Source: a virus
Strand: one strand, 5' to 3'
DNA length: 64,000 bases
IMG/VR virus record: IMGVR_UViG_3300029813_000275
Coordinates: 1 to 64,000 of that record
The notes beneath the pieces are model-generated. The model was not told where the DNA came from. It saw only the letters and a program-made list of their open reading frames with translations, and did no database searches. The translations under genes and the position numbers were made by a program. Shown one piece after another: positions 515-64,000 of the stretch. The first letter of the stretch is position 1, and the number at the start of each line of letters is the position of its first letter.

Positions 515-1206
515 TTGAACAACATCCAATACTTATTACAGGAGTGCCCCGATCCGGCACAAGTATGATTGCAGCAGCAATAAACTTATGTGGTGGGTTT
601 AGTGGCAGAATGTCAAAACGGGGGATGTTTGGGAATGATAGGATCCGGGAAGAAATAATTAAACCTTATTTTCAAGGTATTGGAGTTGATTTGTCAGGGC
701 AATATCCTTTACCAATTATAAATGATTTAACTATTCCAATGAATTGGCATCAAAAGGTAGAGCAGATAATAATTAATGAGGGGTATAAAAAAGGACATTG
801 GATGTATAAAGATTCCAGATCGGGGTTAATATGGCCTGTATGGAATTTTGCCTTTCCGAATGCTAAGTGGATAATTGTACGGCGTAGAACAGGGGATATA
901 ATACAATCTTGTTTAAAGACAGCATTTATGGATGCTTTTACTTATGCAAATAATCAAAAGGTGATTGGAGTAAATACTGAGCAGGAAGGTTGGTTGTGGT
1001 GGGTGCATCAATATGAAAAGCGATTTGTTGAAATGATAACTGAGGGATTGAATTGTAAAGTGGTATGGCCTGACCGTATGGTGCATGGTGATTACCAGCA
1101 AATGTATGAAACATTAGAATGGCTGGGGTTATCCTGGAATAAGGAAATAGTAAATTTAATTGATCCTTTATTGTGGAATGTAAGACAAAAAGAAAGGAAT
1201 AAATAA
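511..1206 (+). CDS. sulfotransferase-family protein (PAPS-dependent type)
   Basis: N-terminal ILITGVPRSGTSM resembles the 5'-phosphosulfate-binding loop. IIVRRRTGDIIQS resembles the 3'-phosphate-binding RxxxD..S motif. Translationally coupled on both sides. Confidence 0.6.
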   Translation: MIEQHPILITGVPRSGTSMIAAAINLCGGFSGRMSKRGMFGNDRIREEIIKPYFQGIGVDLSGQYPLPIINDLTIPMNWHQKVEQIIINEGYKKGHWMYKDSRSGLIWPVWNFAFPNAKWIIVRRRTGDIIQSCLKTAFMDAFTYANNQKVIGVNTEQEGWLWWVHQYEKRFVEMITEGLNCKVVWPDRMVHGDYQQMYETLEWLGLSWNKEIVNLIDPLLWNVRQKERNK

Positions 1207-10400: not shown

Positions 10401-11714
10401 GATGAAGTTCTGGCAATCGGGCATGTATCTAATGCTGCATTGGATGCAAGTCTTTATTTCAGTGCAACAGATTCAGATAATCCTTTTTGCAGGGTATTTG
10501 ATGGGGTGGATTCGTATGCAAAATGGAGCTTAGGAGATAAGACTACAATAAAAATGCAGTGGGGCAATCTTGCGAGTTTGGCAGGTTATGATATTGTGCC
10601 GGCGGATCCCGGATATGGATTTTATTCTGATAATGTTTTTTTAAAAGGAAAAATTGTAGCGACTTTAGGCGAAATTGGTGGTTGGACAATTAGTTCGACT
10701 GCTTTAACAGGCGGGGCAAACGCAACAACAATAGCATTAACTCCTGCGACCGGAATCCATATGGGAAACGCTGTTTTTGCAGATGCTCCATTTTCGGTCA
10801 CAAATGCCGGAGTTTTGAAAGCAATAAGCGGCACAATCGGTGGATGGACGCTTGCATCAGATGCTCTATATACAGGAACGAAATATATAGCTGATGATTG
10901 GAGTGCAACAGGAATCACACTTGCAAATGATGGGGCAATACATACACCTAATTTTTATGTTAATACCAATGGCGAAATAGGGTTAAGACAAGTTGAAAGT
11001 GTTTTGTTTAAAACAGACATTAATAATTTAGGGATAAAAATTGCAGGAGGACATATTTGGGAAAATGAAATTAATTCAGATATTGGATATATAACAATTA
11101 ATAATGAAGGTCATAATGGAACTATGGATCATTTTAGACAACTTCAAATATATAATGGGAAAGGGGCAATGTTGGCGGAATTTAGTGGGTATTATAATAA
11201 AGTTAAATCATATGTTCTTTTGGAAAGTTCTGTAAATATTATTGATGGATATGCTGCTTACTTCTTCAATGATGGTAACCAGTCCAGCAGATATGGTATA
11301 GGCATACAATATGGAAAGGATATTCGTGATGGAGTAGCAGATTATCCTATTAGATTTTATGATGGTGATGGTGGTTTATCAGGATATATACTATCAAACG
11401 ACACTGATTTAACTCTCACACATATATCAGATATTTCATTAAAAGAAAACATAAAAGATTATACTATCAATGGGCTTGATATTATTGATCAATTACAGTA
11501 CAGATCATTCAACTTGAAAAAGAATCCAGATAAGGATAGGATAGTCCATGGTTGGATAGCAGATGAAGTTGAAAAGTTTTTACCTGAAATGGTATCAGTG
11601 GATCCTGAAACAGGATTGAAAACGATCAGTCAAACAAGGCTGATTCCTGTTTTAGTAGCTTCTGTAAAGGAATTGAAAAAGAAGATAAAAATATTGGAAG
11701 CTCAAAAAAATTAA
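7440..11714 (+). CDS. distal tail / tail fibre protein with C-terminal S74 intramolecular chaperone domain
   Basis: 1424 aa following the TMP. The C-terminus HISDISLKENIKDY...IVHGWIADEVEKFLPEMV...LIPVLVASVKELKKKI matches the peptidase S74 (endosialidase chaperone) signature. Repeated IGGWT(I/L).S.AL motifs. Confidence 0.85.
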   Translation: MAHVLEYYHEYYDIGGTLHRVELLQDGYSGGSTHIKKSDAVPVRMRHTGSKTDFEKTIIQGQELVFSFRVARDDVDTFDTLFESDYKDYKVKYYVGEELEFEGYVKPENLSKQFSKNPPYVEITLSATDALADLKNILFGDGSIINDKLTILEILKYALTPIGITLDFQIQLGTYESTYMAATECALKEIVVDARRFFTEKTGKTEILSCHEVIEAALKDFSITFKQRKGKYQITNHNELNSYQFIFDWSTLTQQSRTATGNIVDMIGYKYDPGIEQQKIRPLKTVAITHKNKDLGEPLVGVDNWNNWVIDFYSHTVLAGNVLQLYSSGESYDDYIQYTAGFTKITENDYIKITFDEILHAFTGGGIPSIKIKIEITRPDTSTLPPVYFPCYGEWNTCESYLAPAFKITASGDYIIKISFIPDPYNIWDWTTATFWVKDMVFSKIINTTEEYDLSNITYDKHYRQTSGKGIEIFETETLLADTLQVSEIGALLANGGAANTASWNTYGHTEGIRILDIYARNILNNRYNYKNYLRAEISDRNNNIDFDKILTILSKNYVCISYDRNFKECLITVELIELLTTQQDYSLISEFSLDSVDGVPIKEGVNINVVTSTTTPYHNELGGLYGASPYNHLSAAAYTNVGNLASMAYQATASYYTAAQLNAGQLNNLYYTETELNAGQLNNLYYTETEINTWRAEVTQTEMGYLHGVASDVQTQITARAIIGADAANDRIATWTGATTIKGEPNLTFDGAVLTNKGHRYQQFSTEAGKTDWRLTLANEDADLAKIFNYDVGGAAFKNMVLGNTTKLLYLDLANTRIGINRSDPAYTFDINGTGRFVGNLYGDANVQHKDFTTGFQGTNWQITDAGNGELNNLLVRGGLTVYELILNRLHYQCGGLIIGAGGGKIKTIHVATQGSEQLEFEDPAGNSILPFTVGAIVMVQDFDLNRTTIVKKIVRQVASITGQVLTLTTTAGWVIGDDVGAFAYGDEVLAIGHVSNAALDASLYFSATDSDNPFCRVFDGVDSYAKWSLGDKTTIKMQWGNLASLAGYDIVPADPGYGFYSDNVFLKGKIVATLGEIGGWTISSTALTGGANATTIALTPATGIHMGNAVFADAPFSVTNAGVLKAISGTIGGWTLASDALYTGTKYIADDWSATGITLANDGAIHTPNFYVNTNGEIGLRQVESVLFKTDINNLGIKIAGGHIWENEINSDIGYITINNEGHNGTMDHFRQLQIYNGKGAMLAEFSGYYNKVKSYVLLESSVNIIDGYAAYFFNDGNQSSRYGIGIQYGKDIRDGVADYPIRFYDGDGGLSGYILSNDTDLTLTHISDISLKENIKDYTINGLDIIDQLQYRSFNLKKNPDKDRIVHGWIADEVEKFLPEMVSVDPETGLKTISQTRLIPVLVASVKELKKKIKILEAQKN
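9423..9512 (+). repeat. tandem 45-nt (15-aa) repeat LNAGQLNNLYYTETE x2 inside the tail fibre gene
   Basis: Two identical peptide units; the DNA copies differ at 11 of 45 positions, all synonymous. Confidence 0.9.
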
Positions 11715-25501: not shown

Positions 25502-26896
25502 TTAAATTGAAATACTTTCCTTTTCAGCCCATGACCTATCTACCGGGCAAATCTCAAAATCCACGCTTAACGGAACGCTGATCCACGACCATGCTTTTCG
25601 CAAATCTTCACATGTAACACGTTTTATAACTTTCACAACATGTTGCAATTCAGTAGGGGCAACATCAAAAATTATTGAATCATGTATTTGTCCGATTAAT
25701 TTGGTATCCCATTGTTCTTTAATCATGATTTTATCCAATTCAATGAATGACCATAAAAGGCAATGAAAAGCAGAACCACTGATAGGATAATTAGTAACTT
25801 CTTTTTTATTCATTACCCCGCTGCACCGAAAACCGGTTAATGTATCAATATAACCACGCTTTTGATATATACCCCACCACCGGTTTTTCCATGCCTGATA
25901 ACCGGCAAACCGGTTTTCCCAGAAATCATATTCAATTTGTTCTATATGATCCGTAAAACCGTTAAAGGATTTAATGCCTTTTGATATTAAATGATCTGAT
26001 AAATGCATTTCTTCAGATATTTTAATTCCCTGTCCGTTTTTCCATTTACTTTGCGGTAATCCTCCCCAACGACATGCCAGATTCACACCGCAATTTTTAT
26101 AATAATCACCGTAAAACTCCGGAAATACAAAACCGTTTTTGGCAGCGCCCCTTAATATTTTATGCTCTACTGAAGATTCGTCAAATTTATCAATCATAAA
26201 AATCTGCTTCGCCATATCGGCATGCATATCAGAAGCCGGATTATTTATATATTTTATCATATTTGGATCATTGTGGTAGCAAGCACTTATACAAACTTCC
26301 AATTTTGAATAATCCACTTCCAGTAACTGATGCCCCGGACGGGGATATATTGCCTTACGGCAAGCCTGCATAGCTTCCTCGTCCCTGATTGGTATGTTCT
26401 GAAAATTCGGATGATCCGAACTGCTGCGATAAGTACGAACTAAATGCAAATTGAAAAATGGATGAATATAACCATTGACTTGTTCCCGCATGAATCCTTC
26501 TAGGTAAGTATCCCGTATCTTTTTCAATTTACGAATTCTCAATATATCATTCAATTCCGGTATGTTCAGTTGTGTCAAAGCATCCTCATCAGTTGATCCC
26601 TGCTCACCCACAGTTAATTTCACAGGTTTTAATCCTTTTTCCTTATACAAAAAATATCCTAATTGCATATTGGAATTAATATTTGGTTTATTTTTTGTTG
26701 TATGTCCCCAATGTTGGTAGAATTTACTTCGGTAAAATTTATCTTCTAACAGCTTTATTTTTTGAGTTAAATGTTGTTTTTGCTGTTCAATGTAATCTAT
26801 GTCTACACGGATTCCTTGTCTTTCGGCTCTGGAAAAAGCCAAAATACCAGAATGTAACAAATCATATGCTATTTTAATATTTGGATTAAGATTCAT
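25502..26896 (-). CDS. family A DNA polymerase, polymerase (thumb-palm-fingers) domain only
   Basis: HPNFQNIPIR, LLEVDYSKLEVC (motif A DYSQIELR-like), RGAAKNGFVFPEFYG (motif B), QIHDSIIFDV (motif C HDE-like). Confidence 0.9.
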   Translation of the reverse strand: MNLNPNIKIAYDLLHSGILAFSRAERQGIRVDIDYIEQQKQHLTQKIKLLEDKFYRSKFYQHWGHTTKNKPNINSNMQLGYFLYKEKGLKPVKLTVGEQGSTDEDALTQLNIPELNDILRIRKLKKIRDTYLEGFMREQVNGYIHPFFNLHLVRTYRSSSDHPNFQNIPIRDEEAMQACRKAIYPRPGHQLLEVDYSKLEVCISACYHNDPNMIKYINNPASDMHADMAKQIFMIDKFDESSVEHKILRGAAKNGFVFPEFYGDYYKNCGVNLACRWGGLPQSKWKNGQGIKISEEMHLSDHLISKGIKSFNGFTDHIEQIEYDFWENRFAGYQAWKNRWWGIYQKRGYIDTLTGFRCSGVMNKKEVTNYPISGSAFHCLLWSFIELDKIMIKEQWDTKLIGQIHDSIIFDVAPTELQHVVKVIKRVTCEDLRKAWSWISVPLSVDFEICPVDRSWAEKESISI

Positions 26897-27847: not shown

Positions 27848-28756
27848 TTAATAAAAAAGAGGTTTACAAAGCGATCCTCTTAATACTATTTGTAAAGCCC
27901 GTTCATAAGTAATCTCATTATTTTTAATATTCATCATCTGTTCATACCTTTTTGATTCTCTCTTTTTTAATCTTTCAAAACGTGTTTTATCAAACATAAT
28001 ACCGAATGCACAATAAGCACATCCCGTAGATTTTTCTCCTTTATCATAAATATCACAATACTTTAAATTATTCTGCTTTATATATTTCCAAACATCTTCT
28101 TTTGTCCAAATTGATAAAGGCATGCATGTATTTCTTTTGGTATTAATACAACTGGTTTGGAGATAACAAATTCTTCTGATTCTGGAATCAATTGCTTTAT
28201 CACCTATAAACATTCCATCTTTTCGAAATGATTTCATAGGTTTTATCTTTAAAAAATCACAGCATTTATCACTAATATCAAAAGGCGCATTGATTAAATA
28301 TTGATATTTTTTCGGTAATTTGAATGATTTTGTCCTTGTTCCATCTCTTTTGATGCCTGTTAAATATAAATTTCTGGTCGCTTCATTACGGGGATTAGGA
28401 TGACGTAAATCCCATATCATTCGAGCTGTTATTTTACTTATTAAAGGAAATCCATATTTATTTATAACTTCAGTAAAAGTAATATCCGGCTTAACTATTT
28501 TAACATTGTCTGTATTTTTAACAAATTTCAAAATTTCAGAAAATTCATTTGTAGTATTTGAAAATACTGCTTTTTTGTTTTTATTTATCATTCTAATAAG
28601 ATGAAGCATTACAACGCTATCTATCCCTCCAGAGAACGCTATCGTACTATTTGGATACATAGAAAAAAAAGAATCAATAATGTATAAAGAATGATCTATT
28701 TTTTGTGATAATGTCCAATTAATTCTATCATTCAATTCTTTATTTGAAATTTTCAT
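27848..28756 (-). CDS. PAPS reductase-like PP-loop ATP pyrophosphatase
   Basis: STIAFSGGIDSVVMLHL (SGGxDS PP-loop as in the PAPS_reduct/DndC/IbrA family); C-terminal CAYCAFG cysteines; 302 aa. Confidence 0.7.
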   Translation of the reverse strand: MKISNKELNDRINWTLSQKIDHSLYIIDSFFSMYPNSTIAFSGGIDSVVMLHLIRMINKNKKAVFSNTTNEFSEILKFVKNTDNVKIVKPDITFTEVINKYGFPLISKITARMIWDLRHPNPRNEATRNLYLTGIKRDGTRTKSFKLPKKYQYLINAPFDISDKCCDFLKIKPMKSFRKDGMFIGDKAIDSRIRRICYLQTSCINTKRNTCMPLSIWTKEDVWKYIKQNNLKYCDIYDKGEKSTGCAYCAFGIMFDKTRFERLKKRESKRYEQMMNIKNNEITYERALQIVLRGSLCKPLFY

Positions 28757-30051
28757 TAAAAAGGCAAATCATTATAATTCATTAATTCCATTTGAAGCAT
28801 ACTTAACCTGTATGCATAAATTGCATCAAGCCCGCAATATTCTAATAGTTTTTCCTGGCCACCAGGCTGTTTCAATAATTCATAAATCCTATTCATATTA
28901 TTTCCACCCTTTGTTGTGGCCTGTAAATATGAGGTAATTTCACTTGCATAATCTACTATCCCAAAATTTACGTATGTCTGAAATTTTAAACCGGTAATAC
29001 CCGGTCGATTATCCAAAACATGAGCAGCTAACATGCTATCCCATATCCAGTTTTGAATTGGTTGTTGTAATTGTTTAACGCCCCACACCTCCTCAAATTT
29101 TATATTGTGTGCTATTTTACCGATGTTAGGATTAGCAAGTAAATCAATGAAAGGTTGTCGTGCTTTTCGACTTTTCGGCATCATAAACACAAAACATTTA
29201 TTTTCACTGATAGCCACAGCAGCACAAATAATCCGATGTCCTTTACTATGTGGTTTCAACCCGGTTGTTTCATAATCAATAGCAACTTTATCAATTTTAA
29301 TAATATGATCCCCATATTTACCTTGCAAAGCAGATAGAATAGATAAATCTTCAATCGTTTCAATATTTGGTTCTTGATATACTGGAAAATATTGATGTTC
29401 AGGAAAACGTTCATTTGTTTGTCTAATAGCACGTTCCAAATCCTGTATCCATACTGTTTCTACTTCTTTTTCCGAACGGCTTACATAGCTGGAATGAAAC
29501 ATTGGACAAATCCAGGTATTGAAATCCTGATCAGGTATTGCCCATCCCCGCCATTTCATTATCCCTCCTAAGTCTTTTTTCCAACGATGTGCCAATAAGC
29601 AATACAAAGCAGAATTTCCTAACAATACAATCACTTTTGGTCGGTATCGTTCAATTGTTTGTAATATATTTTTCCGGCAACAATCAATTTCATAATTATT
29701 TGGTGTTCGGTTAATTCCTTCCTTATCTATTGGACGGCAATTTACTGCATTAACATTTAAACAATCTTCAAATAAATCTATTCCTAATCTGCGATATGTT
29801 TTCTGAAGTAATCTACCAGTTTTACCTTGCCATGGTTTACCCCGTTTATCTTCAATCTCCCCCGGAGCTTCCCCGATGTTGAGAATGCCTTTTTTGAAAT
29901 TACCAAATGGTTTCATTTTTGGATTTAGTACATTTCTACATAATCCGCATGAAACGCAGGAATAAGTTTTGCCATCCGGGCGGAATTTTGATTCAGTTTG
30001 TTTTGTTGTAAAAAATCCTTGGTTCATAATGCTTTTTTCAAACGATACCAT
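28756..30051 (-). CDS. uracil-DNA glycosylase family-4 domain fused to PolA-type 3'-5' exonuclease domain
   Basis: N-terminus: CVSCGLC and GEAPGEIEDKRGKPWQGKTGRLL (UDG4 motif A), FHSSY (HPS-like motif B). C-terminus: VAIDYETTGL (Exo I DxE) and exonuclease-like remainder. Ends at the exo/pol domain boundary. Confidence 0.8.
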   Translation of the reverse strand: MVSFEKSIMNQGFFTTKQTESKFRPDGKTYSCVSCGLCRNVLNPKMKPFGNFKKGILNIGEAPGEIEDKRGKPWQGKTGRLLQKTYRRLGIDLFEDCLNVNAVNCRPIDKEGINRTPNNYEIDCCRKNILQTIERYRPKVIVLLGNSALYCLLAHRWKKDLGGIMKWRGWAIPDQDFNTWICPMFHSSYVSRSEKEVETVWIQDLERAIRQTNERFPEHQYFPVYQEPNIETIEDLSILSALQGKYGDHIIKIDKVAIDYETTGLKPHSKGHRIICAAVAISENKCFVFMMPKSRKARQPFIDLLANPNIGKIAHNIKFEEVWGVKQLQQPIQNWIWDSMLAAHVLDNRPGITGLKFQTYVNFGIVDYASEITSYLQATTKGGNNMNRIYELLKQPGGQEKLLEYCGLDAIYAYRLSMLQMELMNYNDLPF

Positions 30052-31586: not shown

Positions 31587-32663
31587 TTAAAAAAAACTAC
31601 TAATTTCTTTTCTTTTAAATGCCCAAGGCCATTCTGGCATGGATTTCTCCAAATCCAGAAAGTAAATAATATTCATTTCATCTCTGAGTTGGTATTTATT
31701 TGATATTCCTGGTTCTTTTATGATTTCCAGTTCTCTTTTACTTGTTTTGTTTTTTGGTTTCTTTTCAGCCCAACGTTCATTTATGGCTGGTTTATATGTT
31801 TGATCAACTTTTTTAAAGTCGGAATGTCCCAGTTTGTATCCTTTTTCGTGAATATAGTTGAGAAGAATTTGTTTATTAATTGGAGATAAAGTTTCAATAT
31901 GTTTTCCAGCCTCTTTAATGTTTGGATTTCGATTAGAAACTGTTATTTTCCAAGAATTCTCATCATAAATCCACCGTCCATTTTTGTACCGGGGAATAAA
32001 AATTGATCCCATCCTTCCAGTAATTACCCAAGAAGTACTATCCACACTATACCAGGGATAACGCAACATAATACTTAGAGCAGTTAATCCGAAACCATGC
32101 ACTTTCATTTTTGGGTATCCTTTTTGATCACACAAAAGATTAAGAAAAACAAAATCTAATTGTTTTATGATTTGTGTTTTCGATATTGTACCGCCTGCCA
32201 TTCCTCCCAACGCAATATAATCGTAACCACGGTTTAAATAACGTTTTAACCATTTTGGATCTTCGAAAGTAGTATGAAAAACTGGTAGTGGATGTAATCC
32301 GGCTTTCTCCATTATCATTTGATTTTTCCAAGTTTCTTTAGGACTACTAATCACATCTAAATTAGCATAAATATCAATTACATCCTTATGTTCTTTAATG
32401 AATGAAATGTAATCTTCAATGTTAATTTCTTTTCCTTGTGTCCAAGCAGAAAAAGCTCCTGAGTCAAGAAACAGTTCTACTTTTTTGTTTTTAGGCATGA
32501 TGTAATTGATTGTTCTAATCATTTCTATACTCTCCTTTTGATATCTTGGCATGTTCCACTCTTCAATTATGAAAAAATATGAAAGTAGGCGTCTTTTTCC
32601 TATAAGTAATACTTTTCTTTCTCTCTTATACGTTCCAGTAGCTCCAGCGAAATAAATGATCAT
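31587..32663 (-). CDS. dpdA: DpdA-type DNA transglycosylase (tRNA-guanine transglycosylase superfamily)
   Basis: [12 protein letters not shown] corresponds to the TGT catalytic DSGGFQ loop in its DpdA form; 358 aa; ATGA-coupled to folE and embedded in the que gene cluster. Confidence 0.7.
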
Positions 32664-33214
32664 TTTATCAGTTCCATTAATTCAATTCTGGCTTCAGACT
32701 TTTCCATGAAAGCTCCTTTCAAACTTGAAGTAGTCATTATAGAATGTTGTTTTGAAATTCCTCTCATTCTCATACACATATGAATTGCTTCAATAATACA
32801 GGCTGCTCCTAAAGGTTTCAAATATTTCATAAGAGCATACGTTACTTGTTCCCCGATTCGTTCTTGAATTTGTAAACGCCTTGCATAAATATCAACCAAT
32901 CGTGCCAATTTGGAAATGCCCACTACTTGTTTATCCGGAATGTAAGCAACATGAGCTTTTCCAAAAAATGGTAACATATGATGTTCACACATTGAGAAAA
33001 GTTCAATATCTTTGAGCAGCACAATTTGATCATAACCATCAGAATTGAAAGTTGTGGTTAATACATCTGCTGGACTTTTCTTATAACCGGTGTATAACTC
33101 AGTCCAAGAGCATATTATTCGTTTTGGGGTGTCTAATAAGCCCTCTCTGTTTGGATTCTCTCCAATATACTTTATCTGATTAATAAGATTTTGTTTAATT
33201 TCTTTTTCTTTCAT
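32660..33214 (-). CDS. folE: GTP cyclohydrolase I
   Basis: [21 protein letters not shown]....[24 protein letters not shown] is the FolE signature. Start placed at the ATG that forms an ATGA overlap with the queC stop; the ORF is also open to 33241. Confidence 0.9.
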
Positions 33215-33726
33215 ATCATAAGTTTTTGTCTTTCTCGACAATTAGAACAGTCACAATTATGCCAATTGTCATTATTTTTATAACAATTATAAAAATCAGT
33301 ATTATTTCTATTAAGTAAGAACTGAAAGCATTTTCTTTTAGTCCATCCAACAATTGGTAGTTTAACTTTAATTTTAAGAAGATGTCCATAAATTTTCAAA
33401 GTTAACCAATTTGCATCCCCCCATTTGTCAAACAAAGGAAGAATCCAACGAGTTCCTAAATAGATTTCATCATATCCTCGTATTTGTATTTGATTAATAA
33501 AGTGAAAGTTTCTTCCAGGTATATCATCCCAACCAGGCATTTTAATAGTAAAAAAATTAACTGTTTGGTGTAAACTACAAAGTTTCTTGGCTTTCTCTTG
33601 TTCTTTACTTTTGTAACTTTGATTATAATCCACAAAAAAAGCATCAAAACTTACTCCACGTTCAATTAGCTGACAAAACACAACTGCACTATCAAATCCA
33701 CCAGATAATAAAAGAGCCTTTTTCAT
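33211..33726 (-). CDS. queC: compact QueC-like PP-loop enzyme (7-cyano-7-deazaguanine synthase family; DpdL-type alternative not excluded)
   Basis: [14 protein letters not shown] (SGGxDS), VDYNQ (DYGQ-like), IPGRN, C-terminal NCY...C.C..CRER zinc-type cysteines; only 171 aa versus about 220-230 for typical QueC. Confidence 0.7.
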
Positions 33727-34900: not shown

Positions 34901-35665
34901 TTATACTCCAATTTTATTATTCCATAAAACTATGTGTTCTCTAAGACCGAATCGCACATTTTCTTGTACTGCTAATTTAACAATAGCAGGACTATTTTTT
35001 AATATCTCTTTTCTGGTTCTGCCTTGCGGCATCAAAATTATTTGTTCTTTTAAGATATATCCGGGTGCTATAAAATCAGTTTCTATTTCTTTCCAATCTT
35101 TTTTCCAACAAATAACAAACTTGAACCATGCATTATTTTGACAAGATAATAGTTTGAGAACTGCTGGTTTGTATCTTGTAGAATACAAATTTCCAGAGTT
35201 TGAAAGTTTAGGTGAATTGTTCCATTGATCTACCATGCAGAACATATCCCAGTGGGGTAGTATTATACATTCATTTTCAAGTTCAATAAAAGGCTTAAAT
35301 TTATAATATGTAACGAATGCCTGCAAAAATTTAATGAGCCGGGTTTGTTGTTTTAAAGGACTTCCTCCTGTAATAACCAAATGTTGTCCATTATAAAGTT
35401 TTTCTGCTAAACCAACCTGATCCATTAATTCAAATAATTCTGTAAATGTATATGAACTACCATATTTTCTAATAACTTTGGTATCACACCATTTACAGTT
35501 TAAAATACAACCCTGTAATCGTAAGAATGTCGCAGGATATCCAGTAGTTATTCCTTCACCTTGTATTGTATCATAAAAAAGTTCCGAAACATCAAGATAT
35601 AGTTTCTCCCCTTCAGGAATAGTTTTTGTACAAGCTGGATTTGCTTTAATTAATTGTTTCATCAT
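34901..35665 (-). CDS. queE: 7-carboxy-7-deazaguanine synthase (radical SAM)
   Basis: LFYDTIQGEGITTGYPATFLRLQGCILNCKWCDT is the QueE signature (E.F.SiQGEG..G.p..F.R..GC.L.C.wCDT). Confidence 0.85.
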   Translation of the reverse strand: MMKQLIKANPACTKTIPEGEKLYLDVSELFYDTIQGEGITTGYPATFLRLQGCILNCKWCDTKVIRKYGSSYTFTELFELMDQVGLAEKLYNGQHLVITGGSPLKQQTRLIKFLQAFVTYYKFKPFIELENECIILPHWDMFCMVDQWNNSPKLSNSGNLYSTRYKPAVLKLLSCQNNAWFKFVICWKKDWKEIETDFIAPGYILKEQIILMPQGRTRKEILKNSPAIVKLAVQENVRFGLREHIVLWNNKIGV

Positions 35666-56869: not shown

Positions 56870-57631
56870 ATGAGAACACCAGCAAAAATAGGATCGTTTT
56901 ATTTCACAATAGGTAGAGAATCAGAATTCTCTAAAAAGGATTTTTTACAGATTCTTAATTCTGCTATTGAGGATATAGTAAATAGTTGTACGCATCCTGG
57001 AATTTTATTATCAGGTGGGGTAGATAGTTCATTATTAGCAATAATTGCTACAAAATATTGTCTTAATATTCCTTGTTTTGTTGTAGGGGACAATATTATG
57101 AATCCGGATGTGCAGGCTGCAATGCAATTGGCAGAGGAAAAAAAATTGAATTTATATGTTCATCTTCTTAATCCGACAGAAATATCACGTATTCAAAAGG
57201 AAACAAAAGCAATTTATTCTAATATTTATGAAGGAGATGATTGTGTATTTGCTGCTTTAGAATTTGCTTCCCCATTTGTTACCGATTTAATTGCCACGGA
57301 TGGAATTGATGAATTGATGGGCGGATACTGGGGGCATCGGGACAGAAAAAGGTTTCCTGATATAAAAGATGCTTTTAAACATTTTTGGGATGAATTGGAA
57401 GAAAAACATTTAACTCCGATGAATAGATCAGCTGAATGCCACGGCTTGGATCTTATTTTTATATACTTACTGCCTGAAATTATTGAACAGCTTTCAAGAA
57501 TCTCATTAAAAAATCGAATCAGAGAAAATGTTAGTAAAGCCGTTTGGAAAGAGATTGCTCTGATGGCAGGAGTGCCTTCATGGATTATAGAAAGAAAAAA
57601 ACAAGGATTTGTTGATGCTTTTAAAGAATAA
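56870..57631 (+). CDS. asparagine synthase-like PP-loop ATP pyrophosphatase lacking a glutaminase domain
   Basis: HPGILLSGGVDSSLLAIIA (AsnB SGGLDSS signature) and TDGIDELMGGYW (AsnB GEG.DE.fgGY motif); only 253 aa, no N-terminal Ntn Cys. Confidence 0.7.
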   Translation: MRTPAKIGSFYFTIGRESEFSKKDFLQILNSAIEDIVNSCTHPGILLSGGVDSSLLAIIATKYCLNIPCFVVGDNIMNPDVQAAMQLAEEKKLNLYVHLLNPTEISRIQKETKAIYSNIYEGDDCVFAALEFASPFVTDLIATDGIDELMGGYWGHRDRKRFPDIKDAFKHFWDELEEKHLTPMNRSAECHGLDLIFIYLLPEIIEQLSRISLKNRIRENVSKAVWKEIALMAGVPSWIIERKKQGFVDAFKE

Positions 57632-57636
57632 ATAAT

Positions 57637-59178
57637 ATGTCATATTTGGAAAAAGTACTTTTTGGGATTAATAAAAGGAAAAAAGGAGAATCTTGTATTT
57701 TCATCAGAGAAGTACAAATCAACGAGAATTATACTATTCGTAATGAAATGCATCAAGGCAGGAAACATATCGTAGTACCCGTTGTAATGATGGTAGAAGG
57801 TGTGCATAAAGGAAGTGCAGGGCATTTACTACATTTAGCAGAAGATTTAGGGCGATTTCCAGAAGCATGGAATGGTATTCCGGTTACTATTCAGCACCCG
57901 GAAGAGGATGGACATAATGTTTCCGCTAATTCACCTGATTTGATTGACGCCCAAACAATAGGACGAATTTATAACACTCATATGGATGAAGGGAAGTTGA
58001 AGGCTGAAGCATGGTTAGATGAAGAACGATTGCGGGAGCAAAGCGCTATTGCATTAGCAGCAATACAACAACAACGTGTGTTGGAAGTGAGTGTTGGGGT
58101 GTTTACTGAGGAAGAAAACGTTCCAGGCATTTGGAATGGAGAGCAATATGAAGCCATAGCTAGAAACCATCGCCCAGATCATTTGGCATTATTGCCTGGT
58201 GGGAAAGGGGCTTGTTCATGGGAAGATGGTTGTGGAATTCGATTAAATAAGAAAGGAGGTAACAGTGTGAAAAAGACAGATGATGAATTAATTATTGATG
58301 ATAAGAAATTATCAGAGATAATGAAAAGTCTGAATAATGAAAATTTGGCAGTTATTCCAATTAATGTAAATGAACAGGGATTGAGATCACTTGTCAGTAC
58401 TATTCAGGCAAAACTTGATGTCATGGATTCAGATACTAAAGTACATTTCTTACAGGAGGTGTATGAAGATTTTTTTGTCTATGAAATCAGGGGAAGAAGT
58501 GAAGGTTCTGTATTATATAAACGAACATATCAGGTAAATACTGATGAGTCTGTTGAATTTACTGGAGAACCGGTTGAAGTCAGACGTAAAATAGAATACG
58601 TCACAATGGAAAGTTCTGGATTGACCAGAACGAAATTTAATAATTTAAAGAAAGGAGTAGTAACAATGAGTGAAAAAAAAGAAGGCGCTCCCTGTAAAGT
58701 AACTGAACTTATCAATCACAAGTTGACAAAGTTCACTGAAGATAACAGAGAGTGGCTGGAAACTTTGGAAGAAGGTCAATTGGATACATTATTTCCAAAT
58801 GAACCGGAAGCCAAAAAAGAGGATCCTCCGCAAATAAATGCGGAGCAAGTAAAACAGGTGGTAAGGGAATTATTTTCCAAACAGGAAGAATATATTGACC
58901 TGATGCCTGAAAATATGCGAGATTCAACGCGTGCTGGATTAAAACTTCATAAAGAACAGCGCGAAAAGATGATTAAGGGAGTTCTTGATAACGTAAAAGA
59001 CGTTTGGACTGAGGATGAACTGAAATCAATGGATGCAAATACTTTAAATAAAGTATTTAATTCAATAAAAAAAGAGGAAATAACTGATTATTCCTTACTT
59101 GGTACGGGTGTTTCGGGCGGAAAAGGACAAACACCTTTATATCCGGGCGGAATAGAAATTGAAGAAACTAAAAAATAA
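57637..59178 (+). CDS. DUF2213-type prohead protease/scaffold fusion protein
   Basis: N-terminal HIVVPVVMM.EGV....LH.AE.L.....WNGIPVTIQHP...SVGVF.....PG.WNGEQYEAIARNHRPDHLALLP.GKGACS matches DUF2213; C-terminal half is charged/coiled (scaffold-like); directly upstream of decoration and capsid genes. Confidence 0.65.
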   Translation: MSYLEKVLFGINKRKKGESCIFIREVQINENYTIRNEMHQGRKHIVVPVVMMVEGVHKGSAGHLLHLAEDLGRFPEAWNGIPVTIQHPEEDGHNVSANSPDLIDAQTIGRIYNTHMDEGKLKAEAWLDEERLREQSAIALAAIQQQRVLEVSVGVFTEEENVPGIWNGEQYEAIARNHRPDHLALLPGGKGACSWEDGCGIRLNKKGGNSVKKTDDELIIDDKKLSEIMKSLNNENLAVIPINVNEQGLRSLVSTIQAKLDVMDSDTKVHFLQEVYEDFFVYEIRGRSEGSVLYKRTYQVNTDESVEFTGEPVEVRRKIEYVTMESSGLTRTKFNNLKKGVVTMSEKKEGAPCKVTELINHKLTKFTEDNREWLETLEEGQLDTLFPNEPEAKKEDPPQINAEQVKQVVRELFSKQEEYIDLMPENMRDSTRAGLKLHKEQREKMIKGVLDNVKDVWTEDELKSMDANTLNKVFNSIKKEEITDYSLLGTGVSGGKGQTPLYPGGIEIEETKK

Positions 59179-59195
59179 GAAAGGAGGAAAAAATA

Positions 59196-59705
59196 ATGGC
59201 TAATACAATTAAGTTAAAAAAATACTTGGATATTATTGAAGAATATGGTGCTGAAGCCGCAATAACTCCAGGTATGTTGCTTGAACTTAACAGTAGTGGT
59301 AATGTTCAAGTACATTCAACAGCGGGAGGTAATGTCCTTCCGATGTTTGCTCTTGAAGATGAGCTCCAAGGCAATGATATTGATGATGCTTATGTTGCCG
59401 ATGATAAAGTACAGGTGTGGGTTGCTGTTCGGGGGGAATGGGTGTATGCTATTTTAGCAGATGGACAAAATGTCAGCGTCGGTGATTTTCTTGAATCGGC
59501 AGGCAGCGGTCTTCTCCAAAAACATGAACCTGATGAATATAATGAGAGCGCATCAATCGGAGGTATTTATACTAACCAGATCGTTGGTGTTGCACTTGAA
59601 GCTATGGATTTATCTACTTCGAGTGGAGAAGAGTCCAGTTTAGGGCTTGGATCAAGTATCGAAACCGTTGGATATAACAGACGTATTAAAATAAGAATTA
59701 AATAA
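59196..59705 (+). CDS. head decoration protein (DUF2190-like)
   Basis: 169 aa; strong SD AAGGAGG; ...ITPGMLLELNSSGNVQVHS....P.FALED.......V.VWVA.RGEWVYAIL...VSVGDFLESAGSG pattern; position just before the MCP. Confidence 0.55.
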   Translation: MANTIKLKKYLDIIEEYGAEAAITPGMLLELNSSGNVQVHSTAGGNVLPMFALEDELQGNDIDDAYVADDKVQVWVAVRGEWVYAILADGQNVSVGDFLESAGSGLLQKHEPDEYNESASIGGIYTNQIVGVALEAMDLSTSSGEESSLGLGSSIETVGYNRRIKIRIK

Positions 59706-59727
59706 AAAAGAAAGGAGGAAAAATAAA

Positions 59728-60828
59728 ATGGAAAATGTACAAGTTGATTTATTAGGAATAAACGGACAAGTTCAGGGTGATGTGGCAGCCCAGTTATTGG
59801 GTAATGAAATAAGCCTTGGTACTATGCGCCCATTTATAGGGGATGATGGTAGGGCTTATGTTACTATATACAATGGGGGTGATCAAAAAAACCCAGCCAG
59901 TTATGTGACAAATCCTATCAATACTAATGCAACACTTCGCAGGGATGAATGGAAATTGTTGGATGATGCTTTATTGGAAGTTTCCCGGCAAAGACTCGGT
60001 GGAGTTCAGGATTTGATTGATAAAGGTTTAGTTTATAATCTTGGCAATGCAATGGGAACGACCGTACTCGAATGGCATGATGTGAGTGATGCAATGGAAG
60101 CTGTTGTTACAATGGATGGAGTGACAAGGGCTGCGGGTGACCGCCCGGTATTTAAACATAATTATTTGCCGATTCCAATTATCCATAGTGATTATGAGAT
60201 TAATGCACGTGTATTGGCTGCAAGCCGGAGTTTAGGGAATCCTTTGGATACGACTTCTGCTGAAAGAGCTGCCCGTAGGGTAAATGAAAAACTGGAAGCC
60301 ATGTTATTTACTAACACGACTTACAGTTTTGGTGAAAAAGATGATCGTAATCTTAACACTATTTATAGTTATATTAATCATCCGGATCGTAGCCAGGTTG
60401 CTTTAACCGGGGCATGGACAGGATTAACAGGTGCACAAATAGTTGCGGATGTTTTGACTAATATGGTACAAACAAGTATTGATGCGCTTCATTATGGGCC
60501 TTGGATGTTGTATATTCCAACAGCTTATCAAACAGTGATAGATGCAGATTATGTTGTTGCAGCTCCGCAAAATACGATTCGTGAACGTATTTTGAAGATT
60601 GCTGGTATTACCGGGATTAAAACAATAGATACATTGCCTGATGGTAATGTTTTATTGGTTCAAATGACCAGTGACGTTGTTCGTTTGGTACGTGGTATGG
60701 GTCTTCAGAGTGTTGAATGGCAAACTGAAGGAAAATTCATAACCAAATATAAGGTACTTACTATTCAGGTTCCTCAGATTCGTTCTGATCAGAATTTAAA
60801 AAGTGGTATTGTTCATGGTTCTGCTTAA
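59728..60828 (+). CDS. major capsid protein (HK97 fold, encapsulin/linocin-M18-like family)
   Basis: 366 aa; strong SD AAAGGAGG; ...NATLRRDEWKLLDDALLEVSRQRLGGVQDLIDKGLVYNLGNAMGTTVLEW..VSD... pattern of encapsulin-like capsid proteins. Confidence 0.85.
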   Translation: MENVQVDLLGINGQVQGDVAAQLLGNEISLGTMRPFIGDDGRAYVTIYNGGDQKNPASYVTNPINTNATLRRDEWKLLDDALLEVSRQRLGGVQDLIDKGLVYNLGNAMGTTVLEWHDVSDAMEAVVTMDGVTRAAGDRPVFKHNYLPIPIIHSDYEINARVLAASRSLGNPLDTTSAERAARRVNEKLEAMLFTNTTYSFGEKDDRNLNTIYSYINHPDRSQVALTGAWTGLTGAQIVADVLTNMVQTSIDALHYGPWMLYIPTAYQTVIDADYVVAAPQNTIRERILKIAGITGIKTIDTLPDGNVLLVQMTSDVVRLVRGMGLQSVEWQTEGKFITKYKVLTIQVPQIRSDQNLKSGIVHGSA

Positions 60829-60834
60829 TCTAAG

Positions 60835-60857
60835 AGTCACTAATCAGGTGATTTTTT
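60835..60857 (+). terminator. weak intrinsic terminator candidate after the capsid gene
   Basis: AGTCAC-taatcag-GTGATT (6 bp including one G-U) followed by TTTTT. Confidence 0.3.
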
Positions 60858-60872
60858 AAAAAAATTATAATT

Positions 60873-61235
60873 ATGGAACGTACAAAAACAACTGATAATA
60901 CAGTATCTGAAAAAATCAGATGGAAAAAAATTGGTGGCGGATCCCTTCGGTTATTAATCGATGGAAAACGGCGTATAATTAAGCCTAATGAGAAGTTCAC
61001 GGCCACCCCAGATGAAGTGCCACAGGCATTTCGGGATGTAGTTGTGCCTTTGGATACTATTCCCGGAACTCCACCAACCCCTGTAATAACAACGGGAGTT
61101 CAAACTGTTTATGTAGCAAAGCCACGAGGAAAAAGTGGAGATTGGGACGTAGTGGATCCAAATGGAAAAGTTCTTAACGAAAAAGCTCTTAAAAAAGAAG
61201 TAGCTGATAAGTTGATTGAAGATTTAGCAAAGTGA
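60873..61235 (+). CDS. hypothetical protein
   Basis: 120-aa ORF; overlaps start of next gene. Confidence 0.55.
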   Translation: MERTKTTDNTVSEKIRWKKIGGGSLRLLIDGKRRIIKPNEKFTATPDEVPQAFRDVVVPLDTIPGTPPTPVITTGVQTVYVAKPRGKSGDWDVVDPNGKVLNEKALKKEVADKLIEDLAK

Positions 61236-61930
61236 TTTGGAAGGTCCCTCGCATATGGGAAGGGGGAGATGTATGGATAATGGGAGGAGGGCCCTCAGTA
61301 CCAAAGCAGTTCGATATTCCCGATCGGGTTGTTCAGAATGTAGTTAAAGGCGCTTTTTCTCCTGCTGCATACTCTCCTTATATGTCTGCACTTCATGATA
61401 AGCATGTAATTGGTATTAATGTAGCTTATTTGATTGGGGATTGGATAGATATGGTATTTTTTGGTGATAAAGGATTCTTTTTGAAGCACCAACTTGCGTT
61501 ATCTAAATTTCCAGGATTAAAAGTTTCCTGCTATCCCGGAGCAAATGACTTGAATTGGGTTAAATACGTTGTACGGGATAAAAAGCATTCACGGGGTATA
61601 AGTTCAGATTCAAGAACAGTCAGTTGGAATGGTAATTCAGGAGCTGCTGCAATCAGTGTAGCTGCACATGCCGGGGCGAAGCGGATTATATTGTTGGGAT
61701 TTGATATGAAAGTGGGTGAAAAGGATATACAACACTGGCATGATTTATATGGACGTTTTGCAGCTAAAGATCCAAGGAAAAGAAAACGCATGGCATTTTA
61801 CAAGCATCTGGCGGGTTTTCCACAAATTGCTAAAGATGCAAAACACATGGGTATTGAAATTTTGAATGCCTGCTCTGATAGTGCAATTGAATGTTTAAGA
61901 AAAGTAACTGTTAAAGAAATTTTACAATGA
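61232..61930 (+). CDS. MptE/DUF115-like protein (putative nucleotide-sugar transferase of the Maf/sialyltransferase-like class)
   Basis: GTG start; VWIMGGGPSV....VIGINVAY.......D....NGNSGAAAISVAAHAGAKRIILLGFDM......HW pattern resembles DUF115. Confidence 0.4.
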   Translation: MIWKVPRIWEGGDVWIMGGGPSVPKQFDIPDRVVQNVVKGAFSPAAYSPYMSALHDKHVIGINVAYLIGDWIDMVFFGDKGFFLKHQLALSKFPGLKVSCYPGANDLNWVKYVVRDKKHSRGISSDSRTVSWNGNSGAAAISVAAHAGAKRIILLGFDMKVGEKDIQHWHDLYGRFAAKDPRKRKRMAFYKHLAGFPQIAKDAKHMGIEILNACSDSAIECLRKVTVKEILQ

Positions 61931-63096
61931 AACAAATAGGAGTTGGGGAATTAATTTTAGGTAAAGAAGAAAAGAAATTGCTAAATCAGGTGATTAATAG
62001 TAATCGACTGTCCTATGGAAAATTTACAAAGAAATTTGAGGAATTATTTGCTAATGAACATGATTCAAAATACGGCGTTTTTTGCAATAGTGGAACTTCT
62101 GCTTTATATATGGCTTTAGCTGCATTGAAAGAAAAATATCAGTGGAAAAGACATGATGAAATTATTGTTCCTGCCACTACTTTTGTTGCTACAATTAATA
62201 TAATATTGCTCAATGATTTAATTCCAGTATTGGTGGATGTGGATAAAGAAACATATAATATTAATACAAAATTAATTGAGAATAAGATAACAAAAAGAAC
62301 AAAAGGAATTATTCCAGTTCATTTATTTGGATTACCAGCGGATATGGATTCAATTCTTGAAATTGCAAAATGTAATAATCTGAAAGTAATTGAAGATTCT
62401 TGTGAATGCATGTTTGCAAAATATAAGAATAAAAAAGTAGGTTCATTTGGCGAGATAGGATGTTTTTCTACTTATGTTGCCCATTTTTTGGTAACTGGGA
62501 TTGGAGGATTTTGTATTTCTGATGATGAGGAAATTATAAAAATACTTAGGAGTCTGATGAATCATGGAAGAGATTCAATATATATTACAATTGATGACGA
62601 TAAAAATATTCCTATTAAGAAACTGCAAGAAGTAATTGCCAAACGATTTAATTTTACTCGCGTCGGATTTAATTTTAAAGCAACTGAATTGGAGGCAGCA
62701 ATTGGTTTAGGACAATTCAAACAAAGAAATAAAATAATCAGTCGCCGTAAGGAAATAGCACATAAATTTATACAAGGATTGAAAAGATTAAATGTTCATA
62801 TGCAATCACCTTGTATCCCAAATGATCGAGATCATAATTTTATGATGTTTCCAATTGTATTGAAAACAATATGTAAAGAAAATTTAATAAGATTTCTTGA
62901 AAAAAATGATATTGAAACCAGGGATATGCTACCTCTTCTTGATCAACCTGCATATAAAGGGATGTTTAATATTGAAGATTTTCCTGTTTCACAATGGATT
63001 AAGAAATATGGGTTTTATATAGGTTGTCATCAATATATTACAGACGGTGAGGTGAAATATATCATTGAAAAATTTTATGAATTTTTTAGAAAATGA
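61927..63096 (+). CDS. DegT/DnrJ/EryC1-family PLP/PMP enzyme with His in place of the Schiff-base Lys (ColD-type sugar 3-dehydratase signature)
   Basis: 389 aa; NSGTSALYMAL, IPVHLFG, DSCE. At the F-S-x-x-x-x-K position the sequence is CFSTYVAHFLVTGIGG (His186). Downstream ...DDEEIIKILRSLMNHGR. Confidence 0.7.
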   Translation: MKQIGVGELILGKEEKKLLNQVINSNRLSYGKFTKKFEELFANEHDSKYGVFCNSGTSALYMALAALKEKYQWKRHDEIIVPATTFVATINIILLNDLIPVLVDVDKETYNINTKLIENKITKRTKGIIPVHLFGLPADMDSILEIAKCNNLKVIEDSCECMFAKYKNKKVGSFGEIGCFSTYVAHFLVTGIGGFCISDDEEIIKILRSLMNHGRDSIYITIDDDKNIPIKKLQEVIAKRFNFTRVGFNFKATELEAAIGLGQFKQRNKIISRRKEIAHKFIQGLKRLNVHMQSPCIPNDRDHNFMMFPIVLKTICKENLIRFLEKNDIETRDMLPLLDQPAYKGMFNIEDFPVSQWIKKYGFYIGCHQYITDGEVKYIIEKFYEFFRK

Positions 63097-64000
63097 AGAA
63101 AGCATTAATTACGGGTATTACAGGGCAAGATGGATCATATCTTGCTGAACTTTTGTTGAAAAAAGAATATGAAGTTCATGGATTAGTAAGAAGAACTTCT
63201 CAGGATAATCATCATAATATTAGGCATTTTGAAAATGATGTAAAATTTCATTGTGGAGATATGACAGATTCAGTAAGTATTAATAATATTGTTGCAAAAG
63301 TTATGCCTGATGAAATCTACAATTTTGCAGCCATGAGTCAAGTGAGAGTTTCATATGATTCTCCTGTTTCTACATTTGATATTAATACTTTAGGGTTTCT
63401 AAGAGTGATAGAAGCGGTGAGAAGAATAAAACCTGATACTAAATTGTACCAAGCCTGTTCTTCTGAAATGTTCGGTAAAGTACAGGAGACGCCTCAAACT
63501 GAAATAACCTCATTTTATCCACGATCGCCGTATGGAGCCAGTAAAGCTGCCGCCTTTTATTTAGGGCGCGCTTATCGTGAAGGATACGGGTTAAAAATTT
63601 ATAATGGAATTTTATTTAATCATGAATCACCTCGCAGAGGAGATACTTTTTTAAGTCAAAAAGTTGTAAAAGCCGCTGTAAAAATTAAAAAAGGTTTACA
63701 AGATAAATTAACACTTGGGAATCTTGATGCTAAACGGGATTGGGGGTATGCTAAAGAATACATGGAATGGGTTTATAAAATTGTACAGGAAGAACCAAAT
63801 GATTATTTGATTTGCACAGGAGAAACACATTCAGTAAGAGAATGGGTTGAATTAACTTTTAAACTTTTAGGATTAGACTGGAAAAAATATGTGGATTTTG
63901 ATGAAAATTTAAAACGACCGGCAGAAGTTGATATTTTGTTGGGGGATTTTTCCAAGTCAAAAAATGATTTAGGATTTAATCCACAAGTGAAATTTAAAGA
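63093..64000 (+). CDS. gmd: GDP-mannose 4,6-dehydratase (3' end cut by window edge)
   Basis: Not in ORF track (no stop in window). Translation: MKKALITGITGQDGSYLAELLLKKEYEVHGLVRRTS...YNFAAMSQV...CSSEMFGKVQETPQTE...PRSPYGASKAAAFY...ILFNHESPRRG, classic Gmd motifs. ATGA overlap with the preceding gene. Confidence 0.92.
   Translation, partial: MKKALITGITGQDGSYLAELLLKKEYEVHGLVRRTSQDNHHNIRHFENDVKFHCGDMTDSVSINNIVAKVMPDEIYNFAAMSQVRVSYDSPVSTFDINTLGFLRVIEAVRRIKPDTKLYQACSSEMFGKVQETPQTEITSFYPRSPYGASKAAAFYLGRAYREGYGLKIYNGILFNHESPRRGDTFLSQKVVKAAVKIKKGLQDKLTLGNLDAKRDWGYAKEYMEWVYKIVQEEPNDYLICTGETHSVREWVELTFKLLGLDWKKYVDFDENLKRPAEVDILLGDFSKSKNDLGFNPQVKFK

Follow-up and report, generated by a model that had tools for sequence, protein, structure and literature searches.

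A phage-encoded DegT-family protein with histidine at the Schiff-base lysine position: a candidate GDP-4-keto-6-deoxymannose 3-dehydratase in a variable glycan gene cassette

We analyzed a stretch of 64,000 nucleotides from a virus (IMG/VR record IMGVR_UViG_3300029813_000275, positions 1 to 64,000; hereafter, the window), which belongs to a tailed phage with a GC content of about 33%. Two overlapping genes lie at its right end on the plus strand. The first (61927-63096) encodes a 389-amino-acid (aa) protein of the DegT/DnrJ/EryC1 family in which a histidine, His186, occupies the position of the Schiff-base lysine. The second (63093-64000) encodes GDP-mannose 4,6-dehydratase (Gmd) and is cut by the window end, with 302 of its 316 codons in the window. 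An initial annotation, made from the window sequence, proposed that the first protein is a sugar 3-dehydratase of the type of ColD or E1. In this report, we examine the two genes, their surroundings and their relatives, and we conclude, with a probability of roughly 0.7, that the 389-aa protein is a pyridoxamine 5'-phosphate (PMP)-dependent, cluster-free GDP-4-keto-6-deoxymannose 3-dehydratase, ColD-like in function. Its fold, histidine position, conservation and gene linkage are described directly below; from these, and by analogy with known enzymes, we infer the probable chemistry, substrate and end product.

The Pfam model DegT_DnrJ_EryC1 (PF01041) spans residues 12-383 of the 389-aa protein (E = 4.3e-89), which contains the stretch CFSTYVAHFLVTGIGG. 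His186 is encoded by the codon CAT at 62482-62484 (plus strand). In a phmmer alignment with the GDP-perosamine synthase (Per) of Caulobacter (PDB 3BN1), 'fstyvaHflvtgigg' of the window protein lies over 'fsffgnKiittgegg', and in 3DR4, a chain of the K186A mutant of Per, the mutant alanine falls in the His186 column. A MAFFT alignment puts into the same column His188 of ColD from E. coli O55 and the histidine of Salmonella RfbH, or E1 (His220 in Y. pseudotuberculosis numbering). The ColD, ColC, WbgN and Gmd references used here were taken from the O-antigen cluster of E. coli O55:H7 CB9615, and the E1 reference is Salmonella RfbH. The placement of the histidine in the initial annotation is thus borne out by alignment with Per Lys186, ColD His188 and the E1 histidine. 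A lysine one or two residues away, which that annotation named as the finding that would speak against its reading, was looked for: no lysine lies within 15 residues of His186, and the nearest ones are K169/K170 and K205. The K169/K170 pair is also present in Per, whose Schiff-base lysine is still K186, and therefore no substitute Schiff-base lysine is apparent close to His186.

An AlphaFold2 model of the 389-aa protein has a pLDDT (predicted local distance difference test) of 89.3. When this model was compared with the PDB by using Foldseek, the best template-modeling (TM) scores were obtained with Per (0.88/0.92, with a root-mean-square deviation of 2.3 Å), E1 (0.89/0.83) and ColD (0.85/0.86). 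All of these values lie between 0.83 and 0.92, so this search does not separate the three enzymes. Sequence searches of the PDB with phmmer rank them as GDP-perosamine synthase (5.8e-50), E1 (4e-46) and ColD (1.3e-42). These rankings favor an alternative in which the protein is a Per-like aminotransferase that acts at C4 through the histidine or a distant lysine, so that the phage makes GDP-perosamine. The same alternative can draw on the N-terminal motif NSGTSALH, which resembles that of Per, and on a review (PMC8987622) according to which the His-type enzyme SpnQ is able to transaminate in vitro. Existing names point the same way: PHROG calls the protein an aminotransferase, and the sources that name close homologues (such as NCBI and JGI) say 'aminotransferase' or 'perosamine synthetase'. 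Authentic ColD (locus L009, 23701-24867, E. coli O55:H7 CB9615) is itself named 'DegT/DnrJ/EryC1/StrS family aminotransferase' by RefSeq/PGAP. NCBIfam has no ColD model, and the best match of ColD there is the RfbH model, below its cut-off.

His186 is present in all 120 of the best homologues (57-97% identity), which carry the motif FSTY[IV]AHF[LI]VTG[VI]GG or near variants, and it is therefore neither a chance substitution nor a sequencing error. Most of these homologues have no source name; those that do come from bacterial metagenome-assembled genomes, among them Omnitrophica, KSB1, Desulfobacula and Patescibacteria. For a broader sample, 1.84 billion cluster representatives (50% identity) were scanned with HMMER, and the best 150 matches were taken, down to about 28% identity. 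The site is His in 134 of these representatives, Lys in 13, Cys in one and Gln in one, and one sequence does not cover it. Within this sample, the window protein falls into a large subclade that is marked by the motif FSTYxAHxxxTG[VI]GG and of which no member closely matched a solved structure in the PDB sequence search.

Loss of the catalytic lysine is also what a decaying enzyme would show, and the protein might be the relic of a dead aminotransferase that is carried along with Gmd. Across 121 sequences, however, 87 positions are at least 98% conserved. In a 40-sequence alignment of the clade, the cofactor ligands S55-G56-T57, D157 and S181 are invariant and E160 is nearly so, and all of them align with their ColD counterparts. 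Such conservation, the cofactor ligands included, is that of a working family of enzymes and not of an aminotransferase in decay. The open reading frame (ORF) is moreover full length and coupled by overlaps on both sides, and its product is modeled with a pLDDT of 89; we give the idea of a relic almost no credence. His-type DegT domains also occur in natural fusions (P0129, P0138, P0140, P0123, P0135 and P0208), either with an N-terminal short-chain dehydrogenase/reductase (SDR; epimerase/reductase), as in the first three, or with GT1 or GT2 glycosyltransferase and methyltransferase domains.

The stop codon of the DegT-family gene (TGA, 63094-63096) overlaps the start codon of the downstream gene (ATG, 63093-63095) in the sequence ATGA, as the initial annotation had stated. 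The downstream ORF matches PF16363 (1.4e-113) and TIGR01472 (4.8e-111). Protein P0271 (316 aa), encoded on a 69,105-bp JGI contig, is identical to the window Gmd over all 302 residues. At its full length, P0271 scores 387.9 bits with TIGR01472, against an equivalog cut-off of 415, and its next best family scores 115 bits. The window protein is 44-52% identical to bona fide Gmds and aligns with E. coli Gmd end to end, and the GxxGxxG, S-S-E, YxxxK and NGILFNHESPRRG (NHESPRRG) motifs are kept. Three loop deletions and a short C-terminus account for the shortfall in score. On these sequence features we accept the ORF as a compact Gmd. The initial annotation, which had called it unmistakable, was thus right about the enzyme according to the motifs and the end-to-end alignment and slightly too strong in its wording, given the score below the cut-off.

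The relation of the window protein to ColD, E1 and the aminotransferases was examined with neighbor-joining trees. A sparse tree of 23 sequences set the His clade beside Per-like Lys enzymes. An independent Lys-to-His event, suggested by this tree, was rejected as a sampling artifact after the 150 representatives had been added; the topology that replaced it is itself weakly supported. In the resulting dense tree of 146 sequences, 120 His-type proteins and the Cys and Gln variants form one clade (bootstrap 47) that includes ColD, E1, an E1-like protein of a cyanophage and the window protein; no Lys-type sequence is part of it. This clade splits into a group of 16 leaves with ColD and E1, mostly of GEGG type, and one of 106 leaves with the window protein, mostly of G[VI]GG type. 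The window protein is 29.6% identical to ColD and 29.9% identical to Salmonella E1, and the latter two are 31% identical to each other. With about 30% identity to both and a place in a different subclade, the window enzyme is, by sequence, evidently not a ColD orthologue. A loop insertion of 20-30 aa after HGRD is common to the window protein, ColD and E1 and is not found in Per, and the three also have in common an ED-x-C-[ED] motif. The proposal that the protein is a 3-dehydratase of the ColD/E1 type is supported by the position of the histidine, by the coupling to Gmd and, in the dense tree, by the grouping with both enzymes. It needs correction insofar as the protein is no ColD orthologue and has an Ala-His, not a Ser-His, dyad, and insofar as the end product may be colitose or another 3,6-dideoxy or 4-amino-3,4,6-trideoxy sugar.

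These comparisons also bear on whether the phage makes GDP-perosamine. The dense tree groups the window protein with ColD and E1, and the protein has the loop insertion of the dehydratases. The histidine is invariant across a very large clade, and the lysine pair nearest to it on the N-terminal side occurs equally in Per, which uses K186. In several bacterial loci described below, a separate Lys-type DegT protein is encoded beside the His-type one. We therefore regard a Per-like aminotransferase as improbable, even though the closest solved structures and the existing names favor it.

Only two cysteines, C159 and C179, are conserved in the clade of the window protein. The four-cysteine [2Fe-2S] site of E1, which we take to be C193, C251, C253 and C261, a numbering that agrees with the cysteine positions in our alignment, has as its equivalents C159, S217, Y219 and no residue at all. 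These positions are important for another alternative, namely that the protein is an E1-type dehydrase (RfbH/DdhC-like), which would need a [2Fe-2S] cluster, an E3-type reductase and a CDP-hexose substrate. The RfbH model is indeed the top NCBIfam match of the 389-aa protein, and the protein resembles E1 in its Ala-His dyad and in having a Tyr where E1 has Tyr217. The match amounts to 232 bits, however, far under the cut-off of 423 and only 8 bits above PseC, and the clade as a whole lacks three of the four cluster cysteines. The neighboring gene encodes Gmd, not CDP-glucose dehydratase, and no E3-like reductase was found among the cassette genes or the other ORFs that were scanned. An E1-type dehydrase is thus very improbable.

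A preprint lists sites that govern dehydratase versus transaminase behavior, namely D194, Y217, H220 and F345 of E1 and S187 of ColD (bioRxiv 10.1101/2021.09.04.459008); the roles of residues given here follow this preprint and the review PMC8987622. The equivalents in the window protein are E160, Y183, H186 and M306 for the E1 sites and A185 for ColD S187. Ser187 is cited there as the second residue on which the conversion of ColD into a transaminase depends, and according to the same preprint it is not conserved among dehydratases. The window enzyme is thus ColD-like in its lack of the cluster cysteines and E1-like in its Ala-His dyad, and it is an orthologue of neither.

The two genes are part of a longer run of genes. 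To their left, the major capsid protein gene (59728-60828, plus strand; DUF6260/HK97-like, PF19774 at 7e-18, phrog_771 and phrog_264) forms the left border of what we call the glycan cassette. Between it and the cassette, a 120-aa protein is encoded (60873-61235, plus strand) that is kept in eight related contigs. Pfam and PHROG scans found no family match for this protein, whose N- and C-terminal parts are conserved, whereas the Pro/Thr-rich linker connecting them varies in length; that it might be a glycan acceptor is speculation. The first cassette gene (61232-61930, plus strand) encodes a putative glycosyltransferase of 232 aa, with a match to phrog_4603 ('alpha-2,3-sialyltransferase', 7.7e-28) and a weak Pfam match to an MptE-like family. 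Its ORF is overlapped by that of the 120-aa protein and is ATGA-coupled to the DegT-family gene at 61927-61930. From 60873 up to the end of the window, the genes thus all point the same way, and each overlaps the next.

The left end of the window has genes of the same kind. A frame open to the window start (2-514, plus strand) encodes the C-terminal 170 aa of a GT2 glycosyltransferase, identified by GT2 Pfam matches and corresponding to the last cassette glycosyltransferase; its identity to the C-terminal part of the last cassette protein of the related contigs L019, L017 and L003 is 63-79%. It is followed by a gene for a sulfotransferase-like protein of 231 aa (511-1206, plus strand; PF13469 at 1.6e-6; 71% identity to the L019 orthologue), which is the right cassette border, and then by a DUF4054 head-tail connector gene (1206-1580). 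Both of the latter genes match those after the cassette in L019. Because of this homology of the window start to the right end of the cassette, we consider that the window holds both cassette ends and that the source genome is probably circular or permuted. On that assumption, about 5.1 kb of the middle of the cassette lies outside the window, on the 69,105-bp contig. The cassette is flanked by the capsid gene on one side and by head-tail connector genes on the other.

When the 64-kb window was searched with tblastn for Fcl, ColC, GT11 and a further SDR, only the known Gmd was matched, and the window has no second DegT gene. Promoter predictions in 59000-64000 were no better than those in shuffled sequences, and terminator-like matches lie inside ORFs; nothing in these scans indicates that the cassette is transcribed as a unit of its own. 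The GC content of the cassette (31-39%) is in line with that of the rest of the genome, which argues against a recent foreign insert.

Related contigs were drawn from IMG/VR, JGI, ENA and Logan. At least 10 distinct phage contigs carry the head genes of the window (L001/L012/L013, L003, L014-L020 and L022), with 63-71% identity in the capsid protein, 64-71% in the 232-aa glycosyltransferase, which has the same position, and 67-72% in the His-type DegT protein. Their gene order is capsid, a protein of about 120 aa, a glycosyltransferase of about 232 aa, an Fcl-like SDR, the His-type DegT protein, and then Gmd or directly GT11; further downstream in these cassettes are methyltransferases and GT2 and GT47-like transferases. 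In all 10 phage relatives with upstream sequence, the orthologue is paired with an Fcl-family SDR and GT11, and no second DegT gene is present. The O55 colitosyltransferase WbgN, annotated in the colitose cluster as an alpha-1,2-fucosyltransferase, also belongs to GT11. The Fcl-like SDR of the relatives scores 448 bits against an NCBIfam Fcl cut-off of 500, and ColC itself scores 304 bits; the SDR is therefore not to be assigned as Fcl or as ColC on its sequence alone. Gmd is missing from six of the phages with a His-type DegT gene, which presumably draw on a host enzyme.

The window differs from these relatives in its gene order, since no Fcl-like gene stands between the 232-aa glycosyltransferase and the DegT-family gene. 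Its Gmd also belongs to a different lineage, being 48% identical to the Gmd of L003 and 78-86% identical to those of L045-L049. The cassettes of L045-L049 have Gmd, methyltransferases, GT47-like transferases and GT11, and no DegT gene; those of L045-L047 also include a sulfotransferase, equivalent to that at 511-1206 of the window, and adenosine 5'-phosphosulfate (APS) kinase. Given these differences in gene content and in Gmd lineage, the cassette is mosaic and highly variable within one phage family, among members with 63-71% identity in the capsid protein.

In each of eight bacterial and archaeal loci that encode relatives of the His-type protein (L005, L006, L021, L026, L029 and L042-L044), a Gmd-type gene is only a few genes away, and five of the loci have an adjacent Fcl-family SDR. 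In three (L005, L006 and L026), a second DegT protein, of Lys type, is encoded as well, so that the His-type enzyme is not the pathway transaminase there. These three loci are one reason to consider that C3 is deoxygenated, as in our preferred reading, and that the product is something other than colitose, such as a 4-amino-3,4,6-trideoxyhexose, or a D-series 3,6-dideoxyhexose formed by a plain 4-reductase. Two of them have further modifying enzymes, with RmlC-like and ATP-grasp proteins in L005 and an SDR and an acetyltransferase in L006. PDB entry 3DR7 shows that Per accepts GDP-3-deoxyperosamine, and the departures of the window from its phage relatives in gene order and Gmd lineage would fit a different end product. 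The phage relatives themselves point elsewhere, because every one with upstream sequence has the Fcl-family SDR and GT11 in place of a second DegT gene, and the window likewise has only one DegT gene. As a distinct alternative, we judge such a product to be unlikely, though more probable than the aminotransferase and E1-type alternatives.

A wider search indicated that gene sets of this kind are carried by other phages. Gmd relatives are encoded in 423 stretches of IMG/VR contigs, and an Fcl-like SDR is present in 22 of the best 80 loci. Three of the IMG/VR loci (L121, L123 and L126) encode, in a row, Gmd, an Fcl-like SDR and a ColD-like His-type DegT protein (SFYFGHHMSTVEGG, GEGG type), and L121 has GT11 genes as well. 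Judged by these genes, the three loci represent a second, independent phage-borne gene set of colitose type, and such sets recur in metagenomes. Literature searches for phage-encoded colitose or 3-dehydratase pathways returned nothing specific.

Several of our observations weigh against the assignment of the 389-aa protein as a ColD-like 3-dehydratase. Its best PDB match, by sequence and by fold, is an aminotransferase, GDP-perosamine synthase, and it shares only about 30% of its residues with ColD or E1. The sparse tree put the His clade beside Lys enzymes, and the bootstrap value of the all-His clade in the dense tree is only 47. The subclade has Val/Ile in place of the Glu of the family GEGG motif and Phe163 in place of the Gly of the ED..E..G motif, and to our knowledge none of its members has been characterized. 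As regards the neighboring genes, Gmd falls 27 bits below the NCBIfam equivalog cut-off, and the 64-kb window contains no 4-reductase/epimerase or GT11 gene. The Fcl-like SDR of the relatives is closer to E. coli Fcl (47-50% identity) than to ColC (35-36%) and, being nearer to true Fcl, could simply make GDP-fucose. With these points taken into account, we retain the 3-dehydratase as the preferred reading at the probability stated above. If it is correct, the odds that the final sugar is of colitose type, as opposed to another 3-deoxy derivative, are roughly even.

The reaction scheme that we propose follows the steps of the ColD mechanism as summarized in a review (PMC8987622). Gmd would convert GDP-mannose to GDP-4-keto-6-deoxymannose. 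The PMP form of the His-type enzyme would then react at C4 of this product to form a ketimine, after which His186 would take the C4' proton and the 3-OH would be expelled. Hydrolysis of the resulting enamine would yield GDP-4-keto-3,6-dideoxymannose and ammonia, and an amino-acid donor would return pyridoxal 5'-phosphate to PMP without the help of an Fe-S cluster or a partner reductase. Finally, a 5-epimerase/4-reductase of the Fcl/ColC type could produce a colitose-type 3,6-dideoxyhexose for a GT11-type transferase. The gene for this enzyme is probably located in the roughly 5 kb of the cassette that lie outside the window; the suggestion of the initial annotation that a reductase may be encoded shortly past the window end is thus a reasonable, if tentative, one.

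The remainder of the window is that of a tailed phage, with genes for terminase, portal, a Mu-F-like protein, protease, decoration protein, HK97-like capsid, tape measure and tail fiber. The tail fiber (1424 aa; 7440-11714, plus strand) has a C-terminal Peptidase_S74 (endosialidase chaperone) domain, which is typical of fibers that bind or cleave host surface polysaccharide. GTP cyclohydrolase I (32660-33241, minus strand; E = 1e-69) is accompanied by a radical-SAM/4Fe-4S protein (34901-35665, minus strand), a protein with a 3'-phosphoadenosine-5'-phosphosulfate (PAPS)-reductase domain (27848-28756, minus strand) and an Asn-synthase/PP-loop protein (56870-57631, plus strand), the last of which is set among the head genes. 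We take this set to be reminiscent of 7-deazaguanine (preQ0-type) DNA modification pathways. Also in this phage, one protein combines a uracil-DNA-glycosylase-superfamily domain with a 3'-5' exonuclease domain (28756-30051, minus strand), and a family A polymerase domain (25502-26896, minus strand) is encoded apart from that exonuclease; the separate encoding of the two domains suggests a split PolA.

We considered whether the cassette might serve DNA hypermodification by glycosylation. No enzymes for 5-hydroxymethyl-pyrimidines were found among 20 replication-module ORFs, which are not all of the ORFs in the window; instead, the ORFs scanned include genes that we read, from their Pfam matches, as being of the 7-deazaguanine-synthesis type. 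With this coverage, DNA was set aside as the target only provisionally. The fixed place of the cassette in the block of head genes suggests the virion as the site of the glycan.

A broader proposal, which we offer with considerable doubt, is that the His-type DegT and Gmd genes represent one allele of a hypervariable phage 'serotype' cassette. Such a cassette would build an oligosaccharide for the phage's own particles, with the capsid, the decoration protein or the 120-aa protein as the site of attachment, and in this phage the oligosaccharide would include a 3,6-dideoxyhexose and possibly sulfate. Under the same tentative proposal, the enzyme would offer a first point of access to a fourth, very large lineage of His-type sugar dehydratases (FSTYxAHxxxTG[VI]GG), one that is widespread in uncultivated anaerobes, candidate phyla radiation (CPR) bacteria and archaea. 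If the glycan is displayed on the virion or on the surface of the infected cell, this would amount to a surface-antigen system that is controlled by the phage and uses rare sugars.

Taken as a phage-borne member of the known His-type sugar 3-dehydratases, the enzyme is a credible and not unprecedented assignment and a modest surprise, and we regard the variable, capsid-linked glycan cassette as the more interesting part. The assignment nevertheless matters for annotation, since a single Lys-to-His column decides whether an amino sugar or a dideoxy sugar is predicted as the product. For enzymology, a subclade that is as near to GDP-perosamine synthase as to ColD is a natural test case for the switch from transamination to dehydration.

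The window protein can be compared with several known systems. With Per of Caulobacter crescentus (PDB 3BN1 and 3DR4) it presumably shares the substrate GDP-4-keto-6-deoxymannose. The two differ in that Per has Asn185-Lys186 where the window protein has Ala185-His186, about 20 extra residues are present in the 217-238 loop of the window protein, and Lys-type enzymes lie outside the His clade in the dense tree. The resemblance to E1 (RfbH/DdhC, CDP-6-deoxy-L-threo-D-glycero-4-hexulose 3-dehydrase; PDB 3BCX) comprises the histidine at the lysine position, the Ala-His dyad, the Tyr at the Tyr217 position, the long loop insertion and the best NCBIfam profile match. Unlike E1, the window protein has no equivalents of C251, C253 and C261, and its gene stands beside Gmd, with no E3 reductase or CDP-glucose genes.

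Other viruses carry nucleotide-sugar enzymes of their own. Chlorovirus PBCV-1 encodes Gmd and GDP-fucose synthase. The 'CDP-4-dehydro-6-deoxy-D-glucose 3-dehydratase' of cyanophage S-H68 (MK016663) is likewise a viral nucleotide-sugar enzyme, a His-type DegT protein encoded beside a GT11 gene; it differs in its resemblance to E1, including the Cys motif, and has 26.5% identity to the window enzyme.

The closest functional parallel that we propose is ColD/WbdK of E. coli O55:H7 (PDB 2GMS, 3B8X and 3GR9). The two proteins have in common the fold, the histidine at the Schiff-base lysine position, the absence of an Fe-S cysteine motif, the ED-x-C-E motif, the extra loop after the HG(R/W) turn and genetic linkage to gmd. 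The likeness extends to the surrounding genes, because the genes for relatives of the window enzyme, like colD in the O55 cluster (colD, colC, wbgN and gmd), are accompanied by those for an Fcl-family SDR and a GT11 transferase. They differ in that ColD has Ser187-His188-His and MEGG and the window protein Ala185-His186-Phe and GIGG, and in that the window enzyme is encoded by a phage and belongs to a separate and much larger subclade, of 106 leaves compared with the 16 of the ColD/E1 group.

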